The notes beneath the pieces are model-generated. The model did not search any database. It saw nothing but the letters and a program-made list of their open reading frames with translations, and had not been told where the DNA came from. A stretch of DNA of 64,000 bases from Candidatus Prevotella avicola (lineage in GTDB: Bacteria > Bacteroidota > Bacteroidia > Bacteroidales > Bacteroidaceae). The stretch lies in contig DXBE01000021.1 in assembly GCA_019116685.1 (NCBI GenBank), positions 15,457 to 79,456 of the forward strand, given 5' to 3'. Both the position numbers and the translations under genes were made by a program. This document shows, piece after piece, positions 151 to 44,250 of the stretch (the stretch's first letter is position 1; every line of letters starts with the position of its first letter).

Positions 151-207
151 GGAATTTCGGCCGTCTCAAGAAAATACCCTAAGGAGGGGATGCTGTGTTC
201 CTGCCTT

Positions 208-384
208 AACGTTGAGTTCGACGAAAAGTTGTAGAGACGCATTCTTGCGTCTCAGCAAGCAAGATTGCCGAATAAAATCGCCTATCGCGAAGACTTGGCA
301 GCTGGCTGAGACGCAAGAATGCGTCTCTACAGTTTGGCAATAACAGGGCTGTGCACATAAAGTGGAATTCGTCGAACTCACGTT
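208..384 (-). mobile_element. MITE-like non-autonomous element, full copy (reverse complement of the copy at 20877-21053)
   Basis: Outer terminal inverted repeats AACGTTGAGTTCGACGAA (208-225) and TTCGTCGAACTCACGTT (368-384). Inner paired hairpin arms TGTAGAGACGCATTCTTGCGTCTCAGCAAGCAAG and CTGAGACGCAAGAATGCGTCTCTACA. Near-identical to 20877-21053 on the opposite strand. No coding capacity beyond a spurious ORF. Confidence 0.7.
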
Positions 385-4726: not shown

Positions 4727-4915
4727 CGTTGTTTCGGTATATTAACTTGTTAGACCTCTTCGAGGCCCATGTTGGTTTTGTTGTTCGTATCTCCGCAAAG
4801 CGGTCAGCCTCTTCGAGGCTTCCCACACGCGGTAAAGCATCTCTGGACCTCTTCGAGGCCCTTTTGTCCCCCGTTTCTACACATATGGCGGTGTGTCTCT
4901 CTCCTCAGCAGCTTT

Positions 4916-5394
4916 TGTAGAGACGCATTCTTGCGTCTTCTCCAGCGAGTTTGTCATATCTCTCACCGCTTATGCGGCCTTTCTTGCTTGCTGAGACGCA
5001 AGAATGCGTCTCTACATTTACGGTGTGTGGCCCTCTTCTCGGCAGCTTTTGTAGAGACGTGGCGTGCCGCGTCTCCCTTGGCAAGCGTGTTCTCGCCCAT
5101 AGTGTGTAGAGACGCATTCTTGCGTCTCCTCTAGCGATTTTGCCTATCCCTCACCGCTTATGCAGCCTTTCCTGCTTGCTGAGACGCAAGAATGCGTCTC
5201 TACATTTACGGTGGTGCCATCCCTCCTCAGCAGCTTTTGTAGAGACGCGGCGCGCCACGTCTCCCTTTGCAAGCGTGTTCTCGCCCATGGTGTGTAGAGA
5301 CGCATTCTTGCGTCTTCTCCAGCGAGTTTGTCATATCTCTCACCGCTTATGCGGCCTTTCTTGCTTGCTGAGACGCAAGAATGCGTCTCTACAT
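4916..5394. repeat. Tandem array (about 2.5 units of ~189 bp) of MITE-like hairpin modules
   Basis: Unit starts (TGTAGAGACGCATTC) at 4916, 5105 and 5293. Each unit has a type-1 hairpin pair (TGTAGAGACGCATTCTTGCGTCT...CTGAGACGCAAGAATGCGTCTCTACA) followed by a type-2 hairpin (TGTAGAGACGYGGCGYGCCRCGTCTCC at 5050 and 5238). The repeated spurious ORF peptides in the ORF track mirror this. Confidence 0.85.
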
Positions 5395-7497: not shown

Positions 7498-10400
7498 ATG
7501 GACATGAAACATGAAGAACATTACTTAAGAAGGATCAGCTCCGTCTTGGTTCTCCTTCTGGTGTCGTGCCTCACGGCGTTCGCCCAGGGCATCCAGATCA
7601 AGGGAACTATTGTCGATGAGCATGGAGAGACCATCATCGGTGCTTCTGTCGTAGTGAAAGGCAACGCATCCGTGGGTAGTATCTCCGACTTTGATGGCAA
7701 CTTCACCCTGGAGGTGCCAAGCGAGAACTCAGTGGTCGTCATATCTTATATAGGTATGAAGACCCAGGAGATCAAAGTGGGCAACAAGCGTACGTTCAAC
7801 ATTACGCTTGAGGAAGACCGCTCTGAACTCAATGAAGTGGTTGTGGTAGGTTACGGCCAGCAGAAGAAGGCCTCTATCGTGGGTGCCATCACCCAGACCA
7901 CCGGTGACGTACTTGAGCGTGCGGGTGGTGTGAACGATATTGGTGCTGCCTTGACGGGTAACCTCCCTGGTGTGGTAACGGTGGCCAGCTCTGGTATGCC
8001 TGGTGCGGAAGAACCGCAGATTACCATTCGTAGTGCCAGCTCTTGGAACAGCAGTAGCCCCTTGGTGCTGGTGGATGGTATCGAACGCCCCATGAGTTCC
8101 GTGGACATCAGCTCTGTGCAGAGTATCTCTGTATTGAAGGATGCGTCCGCTACGGCCGTCTATGGTGTGAAGGGTGCCAATGGTGTCATCCTGATTACCA
8201 CCAAACGAGGTGAGGTTGGTAAGGCGCAGATTGACGTGACCGTCAACATGACCGTGAAGGCTCCCTCCAAGCTGCCTAGCAAGTACGACTCTTACGATGC
8301 TTTGCGTTTACGCAACGTGGCCATCGAGCATGAGTTGGGTATCTCCCCGAGCTCTTGGGAAAACATTATGCCTATGGACATCATTTCCAAGTATCGTAAC
8401 CAAACTACTCTGGAGCAGCGTGAGCGTTATGCCAATGTGGATTGGCAGGATGTAATCTTCAAGGATTACGCCATGGCTTACAATGCCAACATCAACGTTT
8501 CTGGTGGTACGGAATTTGTACGTTACTTCGTTTCCGCTGACTATGTGAACGAGGGTGACTTGTATAACACTTGGGATACGGGTCGTGGTTATGAGTCTGG
8601 TTTCGGCTACAACCGCATCAACGTGCGTTCTAACTTGGACTTCTCCTTGACCAAGACCACTACCTTCAAGATGAATATCGCAGGTTCATCTGGAGTCCGT
8701 AAGACTCCTTGGAGTAATGTCGATGGCGACTGGTTCCAGGCACAGAACTGGGCTGGTGCTTATAACATCGCTCCTGATGTGTTCTTGCCTCGTTACTCCG
8801 ATGGTACATGGGGTTACTATCCCTCCCAGGCCAACGTAACCAACTCTGCTTTGAACATCGCTGTATCTGGTATTGGTGAGACTACCACTACGCGTATTAA
8901 TACTGACTTTACCTTGGAACAGGATTTGAGCTTTATCACCAAAGGGTTGAAGTTAAGCGGTATGATTTCTTGGGATAATGTCTTCCAGGAGACTAGCCGT
9001 GGTGTTAATGACTTGAACAATGAGGCACAGCAGAAGTGGATTAACCCCTTGACGGGTGAGACCACCTTTAAGAATTCAACTGATGGTACGTTTGGTTATG
9101 ACTTCGCCCAAAATGTTGCGTGGTCTACACAGCCTGGTTCCGTGAACAATGGTGCTACCCAGCGTCATTTGAACTATCAGGTACAATTATACTGGGGTCG
9201 CCAGTTTGGTCAGCACAATGTTAGTGCCATGGGTCTGTGGGCTCGTCAGGAGAATGCCACGGGTAGTGAGATTCCCCACTATCGTGAGGACTGGGTATTC
9301 CGTGCTACCTATGATTATGCGGGTAAGTACTTCTTCGAGTACAATGGTGCCTACAATGGTTCTGAGAAGTTCTCTGCCGACAATCGTTTCGCTTTCTTCC
9401 AGTCAGGTGCCCTCGGTTGGATGATTTCCGAGGAAAAGTGGATGAACTGGTCTAAGAAATTCTTGGACATGATGAAGTTCAGGATTTCCTATGGTGAAAT
9501 CGGTGATGACAACGTATGGCAACGCTGGATGTACGTGAACCAGTGGGCTTATGGTGGCAATACCATTATGGGATTGGATCGCCAGAACAGCCCCTATGCT
9601 TGGTATCGTGAGAGCGTTTTGGGTAACCCAGACGTGAAATGGGAAACCGTGAAGAAGTTCAACTTCGGTATCGACTACGCCTTCTTGGGCGGTATGTTTG
9701 CGGGTAGCTTGGATTTCTTCCATGATAAGCGTGTCGACATCTTGCTCGATGGCGGCTCTCAGTCCGTCCCCTTCTACCTTGGTATGACTGCTCCTACCGC
9801 TAACCTCGGTGAGGTAAAGACTAGCGGTTATGAGTTGGAGTTGCGCTTCAACAAGAGCATCACCAAGGATATGCGCGTTTGGGCCAACTTCAATATGACC
9901 CACGCCACCAATGAGGTGGTCTTCAAGGATGATCCTCCCCTCTATCCCGCCTACCAGAAGCAGGCCGGTTATCCCATGGGTCAGTTCCACTCTTATGTAG
10001 ACATGGGTTATATCCAGAACTACGATGAGCTGTATGGTAGCGTGAAGCACGACAACTCCGATAACCAGAAGCTGGTGGGCGACTACAACATCGTTGACTA
10101 CAATGGTGATGGTGTCATCGATACCGACGATTCCGTGCCTTACGGCTACTCCTCTACGCCAGAGAATACCTACAACGCAACGGTTGGTTTTGAATGGAAG
10201 GGCTTCAGCTGCTTCGTGCAGTTCTATGGCGTAACGAACGTGACCCGTGACGTTTGGCTGACCAACTTCGGCAGCAAGCTGGACAATGTTTACAAGCAGG
10301 GTAGTTGGTGGTCGAAGGACAATCCTACCGCGGATGTCACCACTTCCCGTTGGAACTCAACACCTTCCTATAACGACGCTACGCGTTACTACTATGATGG

Positions 10401-20607: not shown

Positions 20608-20656
20608 GAAGCCACGAATGAGCCTTAAAAGCCCTTCGTGGCTTCTTCTGTATTTC
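20608..20656 (+). terminator. Putative rho-independent terminator ending the xus-type operon
   Basis: 11-bp stem GAAGCCACGAA (20608-20618)/TTCGTGGCTTC (20635-20645), followed by a T-rich tail (TTCTGTATTTC). Confidence 0.65.
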
Positions 20657-20876
20657 TCTTGTCCATCGGATTGCAAGTCACTTCCCAAGTAATCTATAGA
20701 GATGAGCTGAAGTGAATAACTGATATGACGAGAAGTGATCAGTAGTTCACTCGACAAGCCGTCAGTTAATCACTTGAAGTGCAGATTTCAGGATGCTTTC
20801 GTGAGTGTCCACAAGGTTCCCCCTGTTATGGAGCGGTTATTGCAGTGCCTTCGTCAGCCTCAATTACCTACTAATT

Positions 20877-21053
20877 TAACGTGAGTTCGACGAATTCCAC
20901 TTTATGTGCACAACCCTGTTATTGCCAAACTGTAGAGACGCATTCTTGCGTCTCAGCCAGCTGCCAAGTCTTCGCGACAGGCGATTTTATTCGGCAATCT
21001 TGCTTGCTGAGACGCAAGAATGCGTCTCTACAAGTTTTCGTCGAACTCACGTT
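20877..21053 (+). mobile_element. MITE-like non-autonomous element, full copy
   Basis: 17-bp terminal inverted repeats AACGTGAGTTCGACGAA (20877-20893)/TTCGTCGAACTCACGTT (21037-21053). Inner hairpin arms TGTAGAGACGCATTCTTGCGTCTCAG and CTGAGACGCAAGAATGCGTCTCTACA. Reverse complement of 208-384. Confidence 0.75.
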
Positions 21054-21348
21054 AAAACTACGTTGGTTCATCAGACAAATGGCGTGATAACAAAGTAGAG
21101 AATATAAAAATAGCCACCTTTTCTGAAGCTTCGTCCCTTTGTTCCTGTGGATTTGCAACCACTAATGATTGCCAATCCGATGGAACAAGTCATGTTTGGC
21201 AAGCAAGAAAACGGGCAAAATAATGAAGATACCTTCATTAGCCAATGAAAGCGTCTTCATCGTCCCGAGAAGATAGCCTCACATGGCGATGAAGGTATCT
21301 TCATTTTCATGGGTATCAGCGGTAATGTCGGCAGGCACCTAGTACCAT

Positions 21349-21441
21349 GCCCAGTACTACATAGGTGGTACCGCAGTGTCAGCTAAGTGAAACTCCAGTA
21401 CCAGTAAGGTGGTACTCCAGTACCACTTATGTAGTACTGGG
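21349..21441. repeat. Nested inverted repeats rich in GGTAC/AGTAC
   Basis: CCCAGTACTACATAGGTGGTAC (about 21350) pairs with GTACCACTTATGTAGTACTGGG (about 21420), one mismatch. An internal 8-2-8 palindrome GTGGTACTCCAGTACCAC lies at 21409-21426. Confidence 0.6.
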
Positions 21442-21674
21442 AAAGGTACTGGATTCCCTGGCGGGTCCAGCCATTTGTCCCGTGCATGCCAATAGGGTTT
21501 TGGCTCTTGTGAGCCTAATAGGCAATCGCATGGATTTTCAGTGTATTTGCCTTGCGGTTTAACGAGATGCAAATATCTCTACCCCATGCAGCTTGCGAAT
21601 GCGTTTGTGGCTTTGTTCCTGTGGATCTGCAAACCACAGGTATGCGGAGTGTTAATTCTCTCATTGTTGATGAT

Positions 21675-22382
21675 TCAGAATTCTGAGAATAAATGTTTTA
21701 CCAGTAAGCCCAAAATTGTTGCTATTCCAAAGCTTAACAGGGTCCCAGCCAATACATATTCCGTCTTGGCTGTATCTGTTTCTTTAAAGCGGAGTAAAGA
21801 TTTTGCCGCTACAATAAAACCCACGGCTTCATATTGACCTATCAGGACAAAGACCATTGTGAGTATCCTTTCCAAGTTGCCAATCAACGCCCCTGCATTC
21901 TTTATACTTTGGCAAGACTCCGCATCTCCAATTTTATACTTATCTAAAACTAACTTGATGAGAATGTTAGTAGGCTTTAAGCAACATAGGATTGCAAATG
22001 CGAATAATGGGATAGATAAAATATCAAGAAAATCTATGCTTTGGATTGGCAAACGGGATGTTGGCATATATTTGCATGAAATAAGACATAGGATTAATAT
22101 GTGTGCAAATTGGTCTGCCAGAAAAGACCATAGCCCCTTGCACATATATGTTTTTATTGTATCAATCAATAAATGTGTGCCCCCTATGATTAGGGCATAA
22201 ATCCAAAAATCAGTAAACGGGACAAAAGCCCAAGAAAGTATCCCTATGATAATTGAATGAATATACAGAAATGAACTTTTGATTTTCAATATTTTTTTCC
22301 GCTTGCAATATTTATCGCTTTGCAAGTAGAAATCTCCAACTATATGAGCCATCAATAAACTCAATAATACCCAGCAATTCAT
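21675..22382 (-). CDS. DUF3307-family polytopic membrane protein (partner of SatD)
   Basis: 235 aa, about 6 hydrophobic segments. Family-typical His/Asp motifs AHIVGDFYLQSDKY near the N-terminus and GGTHLLIDTIK. The start overlaps the upstream SatD stop by 4 nt. Very AT-rich. Confidence 0.8.
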   Translation of the reverse strand: MNCWVLLSLLMAHIVGDFYLQSDKYCKRKKILKIKSSFLYIHSIIIGILSWAFVPFTDFWIYALIIGGTHLLIDTIKTYMCKGLWSFLADQFAHILILCLISCKYMPTSRLPIQSIDFLDILSIPLFAFAILCCLKPTNILIKLVLDKYKIGDAESCQSIKNAGALIGNLERILTMVFVLIGQYEAVGFIVAAKSLLRFKETDTAKTEYVLAGTLLSFGIATILGLLVKHLFSEF

Positions 22383-23038
22383 ACGCTTTCAAAATTTAGT
22401 TGTTCAAAATAGTTCAATGCTTCCTCTATGCAGTACCATTTAGCTGAGCTCGAGTGTTGGTTTATTCCAGACTGTTTTACGCCCAATATGTCTGCTATTT
22501 CCTGCTCGCTTTTAGATAAAAGTTTATAATAAATGACCTCGCTTTGTCTTTTCGTCGTGTTATTGAGCAAGGCATCCGTCAACATACCAACAGTCTGTAA
22601 AGCAGGTTTAAATTGCTTATCAGCAGGCTCTATGAGGAATGTGCCGTTTTTGTTAGGGGCACCCATCCCGTTTAATGTTCGGCCTGCCAAATAAATAGCC
22701 TCTCCATCCATTATGTCGTGTTCCTTATCTACAATACGCATATCACCTATTCCCATAGCCATACGGATGCCATATGTTTGGAATAGTTTTTTCTTCTTTG
22801 ATTCTGCGACAGGAAACGACTTAATGCAACTCTTGATAATTAGAGCAGCCCTGAAGCCGTCCTTGGTTGATGGTAACAGGCACTCCATATAATCCCCTTT
22901 TATTAGTCTCCCCCAGAATCCGGGAAATCTCTTCTCAAGGATGAAAAATAAATCTTCTATTCTCTGTTTCAAAGCGATGGTTTCTTCTATGCACAAAGTT
23001 GTGGAAGAAACAATATCGGCAGATATGGCTGCATACAT
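22379..23038 (-). CDS. satD: SatD-family protein (cyclase-like N-domain plus C-terminal HTH)
   Basis: 219 aa. SatD pattern MYAAISADIVSST...KGDYMECLL...IRMAMGIGDM...DGEAIYLAGR. C-terminal HTH-like segment RQSEVIYYKLLSKSEQEIADILGVKQSGINQH. Very AT-rich. Confidence 0.8.
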   Translation of the reverse strand: MYAAISADIVSSTTLCIEETIALKQRIEDLFFILEKRFPGFWGRLIKGDYMECLLPSTKDGFRAALIIKSCIKSFPVAESKKKKLFQTYGIRMAMGIGDMRIVDKEHDIMDGEAIYLAGRTLNGMGAPNKNGTFLIEPADKQFKPALQTVGMLTDALLNNTTKRQSEVIYYKLLSKSEQEIADILGVKQSGINQHSSSAKWYCIEEALNYFEQLNFESV

Positions 23039-23277
23039 AGGTTGATTCTATTTGATTACTATGAACGCAAAAGTACAAATAATATTTCTACTGACCAAGG
23101 AATCTATAAGTTAAATGGCTTATAATAGCAGAACATAAGTAATTTAACTTATTATATAAATATATAAGGCTAAGTGCTTATTCCATGATGATAAGCATAA
23201 AAAGAAACCGGATGAAAGATGTGATACTAAAATGATGATTTTTGGGAATATTTCTTGTTTATCTTGGATTTTATCGC

Positions 23278-23285
23278 TATTTTTG
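23278..23285 (+). promoter_or_regulatory. Candidate -7 promoter box (TAnnTTTG) for the GH5-GH43 gene
   Basis: TATTTTTG lies about 66 nt upstream of the ATG at 23351. Confidence 0.35.
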
Positions 23286-23350
23286 TAGCATGATTTGTGA
23301 ACCCTAACTGACAATCTTTTCTTTAACCTAATCAATAACAACATTTTTTT

Positions 23351-27206: not shown

Positions 27207-28070
27207 ATGAAAGCCGAAGAAATCATAGAATTGTTTCGCCAGTTTGAATCCATCGCAAATGAATACGAAGGCGTGGAATGTTGGAGCGCAAGGGAACTTT
27301 CCTCCTTATTGGGATATGCTCAATGGCGTAACTTTGAGAATATCGTAGAGAAAGCCAAGTTGGCTTGTGAGAACGCGGGACAAGAGGTGTCCTATCATTT
27401 TGCTGACGTCAGCAAAATGATAACACTAGCCAAAGGCGCCCAACGTGAGGTAGATGACTATATGCTAACGCGCTATGCCTGCTATCTTATTGCTCAAAAC
27501 GGAGACCCTCGTAAATCGCAGGTGGCGTTCGCCCAAAATTATTTTGCCGTACAGACGCGACGGGCGGAACTGGTACAAAAACGTATACTGGACTATGAGC
27601 GTGTCGTGGCTCGCAATAAATTGGCAGAAACCGAAAACCATTTGTCGGGCATTCTCTATGAACGTGGTGTGGACAGTAAAGGCTTCGCCATAATTCGCTC
27701 AAAAGGAGACAAGGCCTTATTCCGTTTAGATACGGCGTTGCTGAAGCGTAAGTTAGGCGCTCCCGATAAGCGTCCTTTGGCAGACTTCTTGCCAACCATC
27801 AGCATCAAAGCTAAAGACTTTGCCGCGGAAATGACTTCTGTAAATGTACAGCAAAAAGATTTGCATGGACAAGAGCAAATCTCCCGTGAGCATGTGGATA
27901 ACAATGCGGCAGTAAGGAGTATGCTGCTACAGCGTGGAATAATACCTGAGCAGTTGCCACCTGGTGAGGACGTGAAAAAGGTGGAACGGCGATTGAAGTC
28001 AGAGGAAAAATCATTGACCCAAAAACGAAAGAAAAACTCTAAAAGTCGTGAGGTCGATGAAAAGTTGTAG
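27207..28070 (+). CDS. dinD: DNA damage-inducible protein D (DinD)-like protein
   Basis: 287 aa. The N-terminal region ([46 protein letters not shown]...[56 protein letters not shown]) matches the DinD family pattern as I remember it. Confidence 0.8.
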
Positions 28071-30916: not shown

Positions 30917-31040
30917 CCTTGCTTGCCGAGACGCAAAAATGCGTCTCTACACGTTTCTGCTGACATTTTGTTATGTAATTTTGTCAAGAATGTATTAGCC
31001 GTCGCGTGTAGAGACGCATTTTTGCGTCTCAGCAAGCAAG
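30917..31040. repeat. Hairpin-repeat variant: 34-bp inverted arms with a ~55-bp spacer (AAAAA-loop variant)
   Basis: CTTGCTTGCCGAGACGCAAAAATGCGTCTCTACA (30917-30951) and TGTAGAGACGCATTTTTGCGTCTCAGCAAGCAAG (31007-31040). Confidence 0.8.
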
Positions 31041-31198
31041 AAAACAATGGAAGAGCCACGTCCCTGCATTTGGGGTATGCGCAAAACGCGATTCGCCATT
31101 ACGTTTCGCCATTTCACCATCTGAAAGGAAATCTCCCCGATTGGGGTTAAAAAGGCCTAAAAATAGGCTTGGCAGGGAGCTTTCTACCATATTAATAT

Positions 31199-32636: not shown

Positions 32637-32661
32637 CCCAGCTACACATTATTTAATTTAA

Positions 32662-32805
32662 GTGAATCCGGCGAAAAGTTGTAGAGACGCATTCTTGCGT
32701 CTCAGCAAACCGCCAGGCCTTTGCGGGTGGCGATTTTATTCAGCGATTTTGCTTGCTGAGACGCAAGAATGCGTTCTCTACACTTTGGCAACGACAAGTT
32801 ATACA
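32662..32805 (-). mobile_element. MITE-like element, degenerate/truncated copy
   Basis: GTGAATCCGGCGAAAAGTTGTAGAGACGCATTCTTGCGTCTCAGCAA...CTGAGACGCAAGAATGCGTTCTCTACACTTTGGCAACGAC. The inner arms are conserved. The outer TIR is diverged on one side and absent on the other. Confidence 0.65.
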
Positions 32806-44155: not shown

Positions 44156-44217
44156 GTGAGTTCGACGAAAAGTCGCCAAGACGGTTCTTGCGTCTTGGCG
44201 ATTTTTCGTCGAACTCA
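44156..44217. repeat. Mini hairpin element sharing the MITE terminal repeats; probable terminator of the S46 gene
   Basis: GTGAGTTCGACGAAAAGTCGCCAAGACGGTTCTTGCGTCTTGGCGATTTTTCGTCGAACTCA is an almost perfect ~28-bp-arm hairpin, 30 nt after the stop at 44125. Confidence 0.7.
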
Positions 44218-44250
44218 TTTTAAATATACGTTGTACGCAAGTGCCTTTTG

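Follow-up and report, generated by a model that had tools for sequence, protein, structure and literature searches.

What are two AT-rich genes doing in the middle of a xylan utilization locus? The question is raised by a stretch of 64,000 nucleotides from Candidatus Prevotella avicola (contig DXBE01000021.1, positions 15,457 to 79,456; hereafter the window, in which the coordinates below are counted), where two minus-strand open reading frames (ORFs), here called genes A and B, lie between two glycoside hydrolase genes of a polysaccharide utilization locus (PUL). A preliminary description, made from the sequence alone, regarded them as a horizontally acquired SatD/DUF3307 pair whose first protein resembles a nucleotidyl cyclase, and offered either a defence system of the Pycsar or CBASS type or a small signalling module as its role. 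The answer that we favour, with about even confidence, is a self-contained, mobile and autoregulated module of a nucleotide-binding regulator (A) and a membrane partner (B), unrelated to xylan use.

The gene pair and its insertion into the xylan locus

Gene A (22379..23038, minus strand) encodes a divergent SatD-family relative of 219 amino acids with a cyclase-homology-like N-terminal domain and a LuxR-type helix-turn-helix (HTH). Gene B (21675..22382, minus strand) encodes a predicted polytopic helical membrane protein of 235 amino acids, which consists of a DUF3307 domain and a conserved C-terminal half. Both ORFs were found as first described, and all the motifs by which the pair had been recognized (ADIVSST, GDYMECLL, RMAMGIGDM and DGEAIYLAGR in A, AHIVGDFYLQ and GGTHLLID in B) are present in the translations. 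The stop codon of A and the start codon of B share the 4 nt ATGA (22379..22382, minus strand), and of 53 loci 50 have A next to B and the remaining three are contig ends, which supports the proposed translational coupling.

The pair is a true compositional island, 4-6 standard deviations (sd) under the window gene mean. A has a GC content of 40.3% and B one of 35.7%, with 42% and 36% at third codon positions (GC3), against means of 52.8% (sd 2.8) and 66.5% (sd 7.1), respectively, for the 28 other large ORFs of the window. The sharp island of the preliminary description is thus real, but its value of 60-67% GC for the flanks exceeds the gene averages, which are 48% for GH10 and 55% for GH5-GH43, and 300-nt windows top out at 60%. 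The gene order is HTCS (hybrid two-component regulator), GH43, two SusC/SusD pairs, DUF5627, GH10, A-B and GH5-GH43, i.e., the pair lies inside a xylan PUL and is divergent from GH5-GH43. The terminator-like hairpin 3' of GH10 (20629-20644) and the adjoining element resembling a miniature inverted-repeat transposable element (MITE) were found as well.

Empty sites were sought via the contigs of homologs of the flanking GH5-GH43 protein. In one relative (locus L066, ~80% DNA identity) only 108 nt separate the GH10 stop from the GH5-GH43 start, and in three others (L067-L069) the distance from GH10 to GH5-GH43 is 267 nt, in each case without the pair. Because the relatives have an empty spacer at this position, the pair is an insertion. 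In a further relative (L070, 86% identical) nothing upstream of 23225 resembles the window, and an AAA_14 ATPase gene takes the place of the A-B cassette in the orthologous GH10/GH5-GH43 spacer (positions 1-930 of L070); the spacer is therefore a recurrent insertion hotspot. A contig considered as a second strain with the pair at this locus (L065) matches the window at 100% identity across 11.6 kb and was set aside as the same genome, which is not independent.

The bounds of the inserted unit were determined by blastn of the window from 18 to 27 kb against 53 loci with relatives of A from other genomes. The matches start at ~21648-21721 and end at ~23038-23184, and the flanks are common to none of the loci. 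The common DNA delimits a mobile two-gene cassette of 1.53 kb (21650..23184, minus strand), which comprises both genes, ~145 nt upstream with an operator-like array and a promoter, and a 3' tail of ~25 nt. The sharing of this segment alone by unrelated loci, together with the empty sites in relatives, supports the horizontal acquisition that had been proposed. The cassette has a GC content of 36.7%, and its GC lies below that of its flanks in 39 of 43 loci. Copies with 85-95% identical proteins are labelled Prevotella, Paraprevotella, Odoribacter, Parabacteroides and Bacteroidaceae, although the labels of metagenome-assembled genomes may be unreliable. A RefSeq protein of Bacteroides ovatus, named 'helix-turn-helix transcriptional regulator' by NCBI, is 90% identical to A. 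No recombinase, tRNA gene or terminal repeat was found beside the cassette when the flanking genes were scanned, and Rfam and tRNA scans of 20.4-23.5 kb gave no riboswitch and no tRNA attachment site. In tblastn searches, A and B had no matches in a phage collection, and against plasmids A gave two remote matches only.

The protein P0027, an identical A found in the contexts L055-L064, has at least four different upstream neighbourhoods (an outer membrane protein fragment, glycosyltransferases, CRISPR-Cas9, and radical-SAM/ABC genes), and the DNA directly before the operator array is therefore what varies. Its downstream gene encodes an ATPase_2/DUF234 protein in L055-L057 and L062-L064, and a cut gene stands there in L058-L061.

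The pairing is kept at 24% identity in Segatella copri, where the products are annotated as 'hypothetical protein' and 'DUF3307 domain-containing protein', and at 23% identity in Pseudoalteromonas; at one locus (L051) the order of A and B is reversed. No third conserved gene was detected beside the pair among 150 flanking ORFs from ~42 genomes, which contain 186 Pfam families, each at most three times, and most of these ORFs are unrelated housekeeping genes.

These observations bear on the possibility that the pair is an accessory of the xylan PUL, or that it has the function in acid tolerance or secretion that the name SatD implies. The location inside the PUL, divergent from GH5-GH43, would suit the former, and the latter has in its favour that the family name comes from the sat (secretion and acid tolerance) operon of Streptococcus mutans. 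However, in close relatives this PUL occurs with no such pair, the same cassette occurs in dozens of unrelated contexts and its composition is foreign to the window, and we consider either function very improbable. The sat genes of S. mutans belong to a conserved housekeeping operon beside ffh, and the acid-tolerance phenotype of this operon is reportedly attributed to ffh, not to satD or satE. For genome annotation, this means that the cassette is a passenger in the xylan PUL with no part in polysaccharide use.

Protein A and its operator-like array

Protein A has 574 close homologs, and an exhaustive profile search extended its family to 1,287 representative clusters at E <= 1e-3. Scans of A with Pfam, NCBIfam, PADLOC and PHROGs returned weak HTH matches only and no defence model, and A itself gave no match to SatD (PF16264) at E <= 1 in Pfam, NCBIfam and PADLOC. 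Among 58 more distant relatives at 27-58% identity, over which the residue conservation given below was also counted, 11 match PF16264, with a best E of 5.3e-9. By this transitive link A is best placed on a divergent branch of a SatD-like superfamily, only part of which is covered by the curated model. The homologs from S. copri and Pseudoalteromonas likewise lie under Pfam SatD detection. Of the two family labels first given to the pair, DUF3307 for B is thus correct, and SatD for A does not apply directly but by way of these relatives.

Residues 1-140 of A (22619..23038, minus strand), with D8, D49, R92, G112 and R120, are assigned to a class III nucleotidyl-cyclase-like domain on the basis of a structural model and profile matches. 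The AlphaFold2 (AF2) model of A (pLDDT 85.9, pTM 0.88) has a beta-alpha-beta-beta-alpha-beta core formed by residues 1 to ~140, which is followed by a helical C-terminal domain. In a Foldseek search of the model against the PDB, the 50 best matches were all catalytic domains of class III adenylyl or guanylyl cyclases (probability ~1.0, E 1e-3 to 3e-2, TM-score up to 0.54 when normalised to the target), and the best viral-protein matches in BFVD were GGDEF or guanylate-cyclase proteins. When the PDB was searched by sequence, the close-homolog profile (A1) gave no cyclase; it took A2 and A5, profiles of greater diversity, to bring them up. The five best PDB matches of the N-domain profile are all class III cyclases, including 3mr7 (E = 0.017) and Ma1120 (E = 0.24-0.4). 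The model argues that the N-terminal domain of A has the class III cyclase fold, i.e., that of a cyclase homology domain (CHD), in agreement with the likeness first noticed from the motif order.

Profile alignment of this domain places D8 on the first metal-binding Asp of the cyclases ('ADM/TDI'), D49 on the Asp of 'GDG' and R92 on the Arg of 'RIGIH'. The Asp pair predicted at the metal-ligand positions proved to be conserved, with D8 kept in 57/58 and D49 in 58/58 relatives. The other positions counted are S12 (55/58), G48 (57/58), K69 (54/58), R92 (57/58), G112 (58/58), A114 (57/58), G119 (56/58) and R120 (49/58). When the helix motif was aligned by hand, its form here, G-E-A-I-Y-L-S-G-R, fell on G-D-x-V-N-x-A-x-R of the cyclases, in which R120 corresponds to the transition-state Arg. 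Judged by these residues, A appears to keep the metal- and triphosphate-binding half of the cyclase site and not the canonical ribose and base contacts, and it may be a non-canonical enzyme or a sensor that binds a nucleoside triphosphate (NTP).

The HTH-like tail of the first description was located at residues 158-212 (22403..22567, minus strand), where weak Pfam matches, profile matches and helices 163-212 of the AF2 model point to a domain of the LuxR/GerE type, which is similar to region 4 of sigma-70. In Pfam, this part of A matches Sigma70_r4_2 with E = 0.0015 and 18.5 bits (cutoff 25.7) and GerE with E = 0.073 and 13.1 bits (cutoff 23.5), while 19/58 relatives match Sigma70_r4_2 and 12/58 match GerE, with a best E of 1.2e-6. 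The profile of A also matches structures of the LuxR family, e.g., 6ide (E = 0.0086). By homology, the C-terminus of A is thus a predicted LuxR-type HTH.

Upstream of gene A there are three operator-like palindromes of the form ATAAG-N8-CTTAT, which follow each other in exact 29-bp steps. The proximal one (23106..23123) is centred 76 nt upstream of the A start, the second (23135..23152) 105 nt and the distal one (23164..23181), at the edge of the cassette, 134 nt. Conservation is confined to the half-sites, and the 8 nt between them vary, as would be the case for an operator of a dimeric HTH protein. When such palindromes were counted over 50 loci with at most one mismatch allowed, 107 were found in 12.8 kb upstream of A genes (8.4 per kb) and 23 in 691 kb of flanking DNA (0.033 per kb), which amounts to an enrichment of ~250-fold. 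There is no second array of this kind in the window. A is the only DNA-binding protein always beside the array and, most simply, would bind it and autoregulate the operon.

In other lineages the half-sites are ATAGC, ATAGG, ATCTA, ATAAC and ATTAG, with the same layout and the same 29-bp period, and the Pseudoalteromonas pair, from a gammaproteobacterium, has GTAAC-N8-GTTAC sites that are 28 bp apart. The predicted recognition helix differs between the half-site classes and reads I-Y-Q-S for ATCTA, Q-S-S-V-N for ATAG[CG] and Q-A-G-V-N-K-H-T for ATAAC. The number of palindromes per genome varies from two to seven (L036; also L027, L034 and L013), and in L036 seven sites of the TATAGCC-N6-GGCTATA type (ATAGC) stand in exact 29-bp steps upstream of position 10001.

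A putative Bacteroidota -7 box of the A-B operon, TACTTTTG (TAnnTTTG), was read from the sequence at 23067..23074 (minus strand), and it is kept as TAC[CT]TTTG in the cassette copies. We take TAnnTTTG to be the -7 promoter consensus of Bacteroides. Relative to the putative start site, the operators would centre near -50, -80 and -110. The distal operator lies at the edge of the mobile unit, and the cassette therefore carries its own control region.

Protein B and the proposed role of the module

Protein B matches DUF3307 (PF11750) over residues 5-108 (22059..22370, minus strand) with E = 1.3e-20 and 74.2 bits against a cutoff of 23, as do all 27 of its homologs, and H13-x3-D17, H42, H70-x3-D74-x2-K77 and D90-Q91-x2-H94 are conserved in this domain. 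The C-terminal half is conserved even more than the DUF3307 part; its residues 130-225 (21708..21995, minus strand) lie outside Pfam and contain the motifs KPTN, NAGxLIGNLER, AAKSxxRF and TEYVLAGT (alignment A3), which are also borne by the Pseudoalteromonas partner. From hydropathy and the AF2 model, B has about eight predicted helices, with transmembrane segments. A PDB sequence search gave no solved relative of B, and the best Foldseek match (E = 0.27) is meaningless. One of the 27 homologs weakly matches YdjM, a putative membrane metal-hydrolase family (E = 0.0013). About 60 positions of B are invariant and many of them are polar, which suggests that B is an enzyme or a transporter rather than a simple pore-former.

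We hypothesize that the module inserted between GH10 and GH5-GH43 works as follows. A would be a transcription regulator that dimerises via its cyclase-like domain, as class III cyclases do, and that binds an NTP and possibly turns it over. The residues for Mg2+/triphosphate binding are kept in A, namely both Asp, the Arg of β4, that of the helix and Lys residues specific to the family. Its HTH would occupy the three 18-20-bp palindromes, set at 29-bp intervals directly before the promoter of gene A, and the nucleotide state of A would tune the expression of the A-B operon. B, which would interact with A and be made in a fixed ratio to it through the ATGA coupling, would most likely serve in the membrane as the output or the sensor and may be a metal-dependent intramembrane enzyme; it carries an invariant His/Asp/Glu/Lys/Arg constellation. 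Of the two roles first offered for the pair, the small signalling module fits better, and it gains from the phased operator array.

Several points weigh against this regulator-and-partner reading. In the hand alignment, the position of the catalytic, ribose-orienting Asn is Tyr116 in A and Tyr in 34/58 relatives; the six commonest residues there are Y, Q, H, R, E and S, and Asn is not among them. The base-specifying positions of A are hydrophobic (L45, I109). A therefore need not bind or turn over an NTP. That it binds the palindromes is suggested by co-occurrence only, the correlation of recognition helix and half-site is confounded by phylogeny, and the position of the operators would fit repression or activation by A alike. 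AF2 modelled B poorly (pLDDT 63), and that B may be enzyme-like is read from conserved residues and the one weak YdjM match. We found no experiment on any family member in the literature. Finally, a conflict or defence system would likewise fit with the low GC, the patchy distribution and the location in a hotspot.

In such a system, A would make a nucleotide signal, perhaps a non-canonical one, on phage infection, B would be a membrane-damaging or lipid-hydrolysing effector of abortive infection that is activated by this signal, and the HTH would repress the operon until then. The cyclase-like fold, with its metal-binding Asp pair and Arg kept, and the translationally coupled design of an enzyme plus a membrane protein agree with this, as do the low GC, the patchy distribution, the cross-family transfer at 88-95% protein identity, the hotspot, which an AAA_14 ATPase gene occupies in a relative, and the weak match of one B homolog to the putative membrane hydrolases of YdjM. 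Some copies, moreover, stand beside CRISPR-Cas9, AriA/PtuA-like ATPases, RhuM or Schlafen-like genes; the 150 flanking ORFs include AriA/PtuA-like (three times), PDC-S05 (twice) and HEC-01A (twice), and by Pfam RhuM (twice) and Schlafen (twice), with CRISPR-Cas9 near one copy, all as raw counts. However, neither A nor B matches a PADLOC model at E <= 1, and Pfam gave for B only DUF3307 and no cyclic-nucleotide-binding domain at E <= 1. B also has no SAVED, TIR or other known sensor domain, A has no catalytic Asn and no canonical base-recognition residues, and the neighbours are heterogeneous, none of the 186 Pfam families occurring more than three times. Fusion of the cyclase with an HTH for its own promoter does not belong to the features of Pycsar or CBASS, and the homologous sat genes of S. 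mutans, in their housekeeping operon, are not placed as in a defence island. Copies are absent from the phage collection and represented on plasmids by two remote ones only. The likeness to a cyclase plus transmembrane effector of the Pycsar/CBASS type, as drawn in the preliminary description, was not borne out: B has no cyclic-nucleotide-binding domain and, with its many invariant polar residues, looks less like a simple pore than like an enzyme or transporter, A is without the ribose Asn and the base-specifying residues, and the pair has no PADLOC match and no conserved partner. A defence role as outlined here is in our view rather unlikely.

Also unlikely, as we see it, is that A is an active non-canonical cyclase or transferase whose product gates both its binding of the array and the activity of B as a membrane enzyme. 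The pair would then be a new, minimal second-messenger system for signalling or anti-phage purposes, which is spread by a recombinase-free cassette of 1.5 kb and which is kept in Bacteroidota, Gammaproteobacteria and Firmicutes.

An addiction module similar to toxin-antitoxin (TA) systems would have B as a membrane toxin and A as a DNA-binding antitoxin and autorepressor, the cyclase-like domain serving for dimerising or neutralising only. The upstream gene does encode a DNA-binding protein and is overlapped by the downstream gene by 4 nt, palindromic operators lie at its own promoter, and the unit is small, mobile, AT-rich and found in variable regions. However, A is conserved at catalytic-type positions far beyond the needs of a mere scaffold, and B, with ~60 invariant positions and motifs kept across phyla, is unlike small hydrophobic membrane toxins. 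Searches of A and B with Pfam and PADLOC matched no toxin or antitoxin family, and the family seems to be ancient and phylum-spanning with a stable architecture, all of which makes an addiction module quite improbable.

The present results bring a large, phylum-spanning gene pair, SatD-like/DUF3307, made up of catalogued families without assigned biochemistry, within the reach of experiments. These could start from the fold of A, its residues D8, D49, R92 and R120 and the minimal unit 21650-23184. The three ATAAG-N8-CTTAT sites with their 29-bp period are a testable DNA target, for which other lineages provide natural specificity variants. Should a nucleotide be made or sensed by the cyclase-like domain, the pair would represent a small module of a new kind for signalling or conflict, common among gut Bacteroidales.

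Known systems and other elements of the window

Compared with class III cyclases (Ma1120, Rv1625c, Rv1900c, 3mr7), A is alike in the beta-alpha-beta-beta-alpha-beta fold, the metal-binding Asp pair and the β4 Arg, and it has the same helix motif G-[DE]-[GA]-[VI]-x-[IL]-[AS]-x-R, which ends at R120. With Ma1120 it also shares the Ser-Thr after the first Asp (DIVSST in A and DIEEST in Ma1120). It differs in that the ribose-orienting Asn is replaced, mostly by Tyr116, and also by L45 and I109, which stand for the Lys four residues before the second Asp and for the Asp/Cys of β5, and by the conserved extra K69 and K73. The sequence likeness is marginal (best PDB E 0.017).

A CHD and a LuxR HTH are combined in one polypeptide in Rv0386, Rv1358 and Rv2488c of Mycobacterium, and Rv0386 is an active cyclase with non-canonical substrate-defining residues (PMC3466318). 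A has the same two domains in one chain, but in only 219 amino acids. The mycobacterial proteins exceed 1,000 amino acids and carry ATPase and tetratricopeptide repeat (TPR) modules between the two domains, and to our knowledge they have neither a DUF3307 partner nor a phased operator array. Some relatives of A reach 470-630 amino acids (P0136, P0143, P0142, P0150 and P0168). Of these, P0136 and P0143 have C-terminal TPR repeats, which recall the TPR modules of the mycobacterial proteins, and the extensions of P0142, P0150 and P0168 are without any Pfam domain. The long members were considered as fusions of A with B and rejected, their extensions being TPR or without a Pfam domain.

In relation to SatD/DUF3307 pairs of the S. 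mutans satD-satE type, B is a true DUF3307 protein, A is related at the superfamily level and the gene pairing is kept, with A and its S. copri and Pseudoalteromonas homologs under Pfam SatD detection. Public annotation of A-type proteins reads 'HTH transcriptional regulator' or 'hypothetical protein'. In the literature on DUF3307 and SatD we found nothing mechanistic and no link to cyclases, DNA binding or defence. Pycsar, in which a PycC cyclase is combined with a cyclic-nucleotide-binding transmembrane or TIR effector, and the pair are both two-gene units of a CHD-fold protein followed by a membrane protein; they differ in that B is without a cyclic-nucleotide-binding domain and A has an HTH and no canonical catalytic Asn, and there is no PADLOC match.

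With LuxR/GerE regulators of the lux-box type, A has in common the tetrahelical HTH, and its sites are likewise inverted repeats of 18-20 bp with half-sites of 5-6 bp and a variable centre. The arrays found here differ in having two to seven copies with a fixed period of 28-29 bp and an alternating orientation of the half-sites, and we know of no LuxR-family operator with such a phased layout. What we believe to be new is that A is mapped residue by residue onto the cyclase site, that the operator array is phased and has half-sites specific to the lineage, that the 1.53-kb mobile unit is delimited, and that empty sites prove the insertion at the PUL. The Pfam family SatD may already stand in the nucleotide-cyclase clan, in which case the fold assignment is not new.

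The window contains further elements that touch the same PUL. A gene with a Bro-N domain (27207-28070; GC 46%, GC3 48%) lies between GH5-GH43 and a GH31 gene; it is missing at the same position in L067-L070 and is therefore a second low-GC insertion in the PUL. The MITE-like element at 20860-21070 consists of nested inverted repeats with arms of 20 nt and 31 nt. Its copies lie at 206-384 (minus strand), 4915-5393, 30918-31041, 32657-32791 and 44156-44233, one of them being 98% identical and several weaker, and there is an apparent tandem cluster at 4.9-5.4 kb.

Closer to the cassette there is a large imperfect palindrome (21334-21457) with 61-nt arms that are 75% complementary and 2 nt apart; its sub-threshold Rfam match to a microRNA was taken as a chance hairpin. 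A 29-nt direct repeat occurs at 21130-21158 and 21604-21632 (86% identical), and each copy ends in a CCTGTGG...CCAC(AGG) hairpin. The repeats were considered as a target-site duplication of the cassette and rejected, both being on the same side of the pair. They bracket ~445 nt that include the palindrome, the second copy abuts the left edge of the cassette, and the bracketed segment may be another small inserted element.

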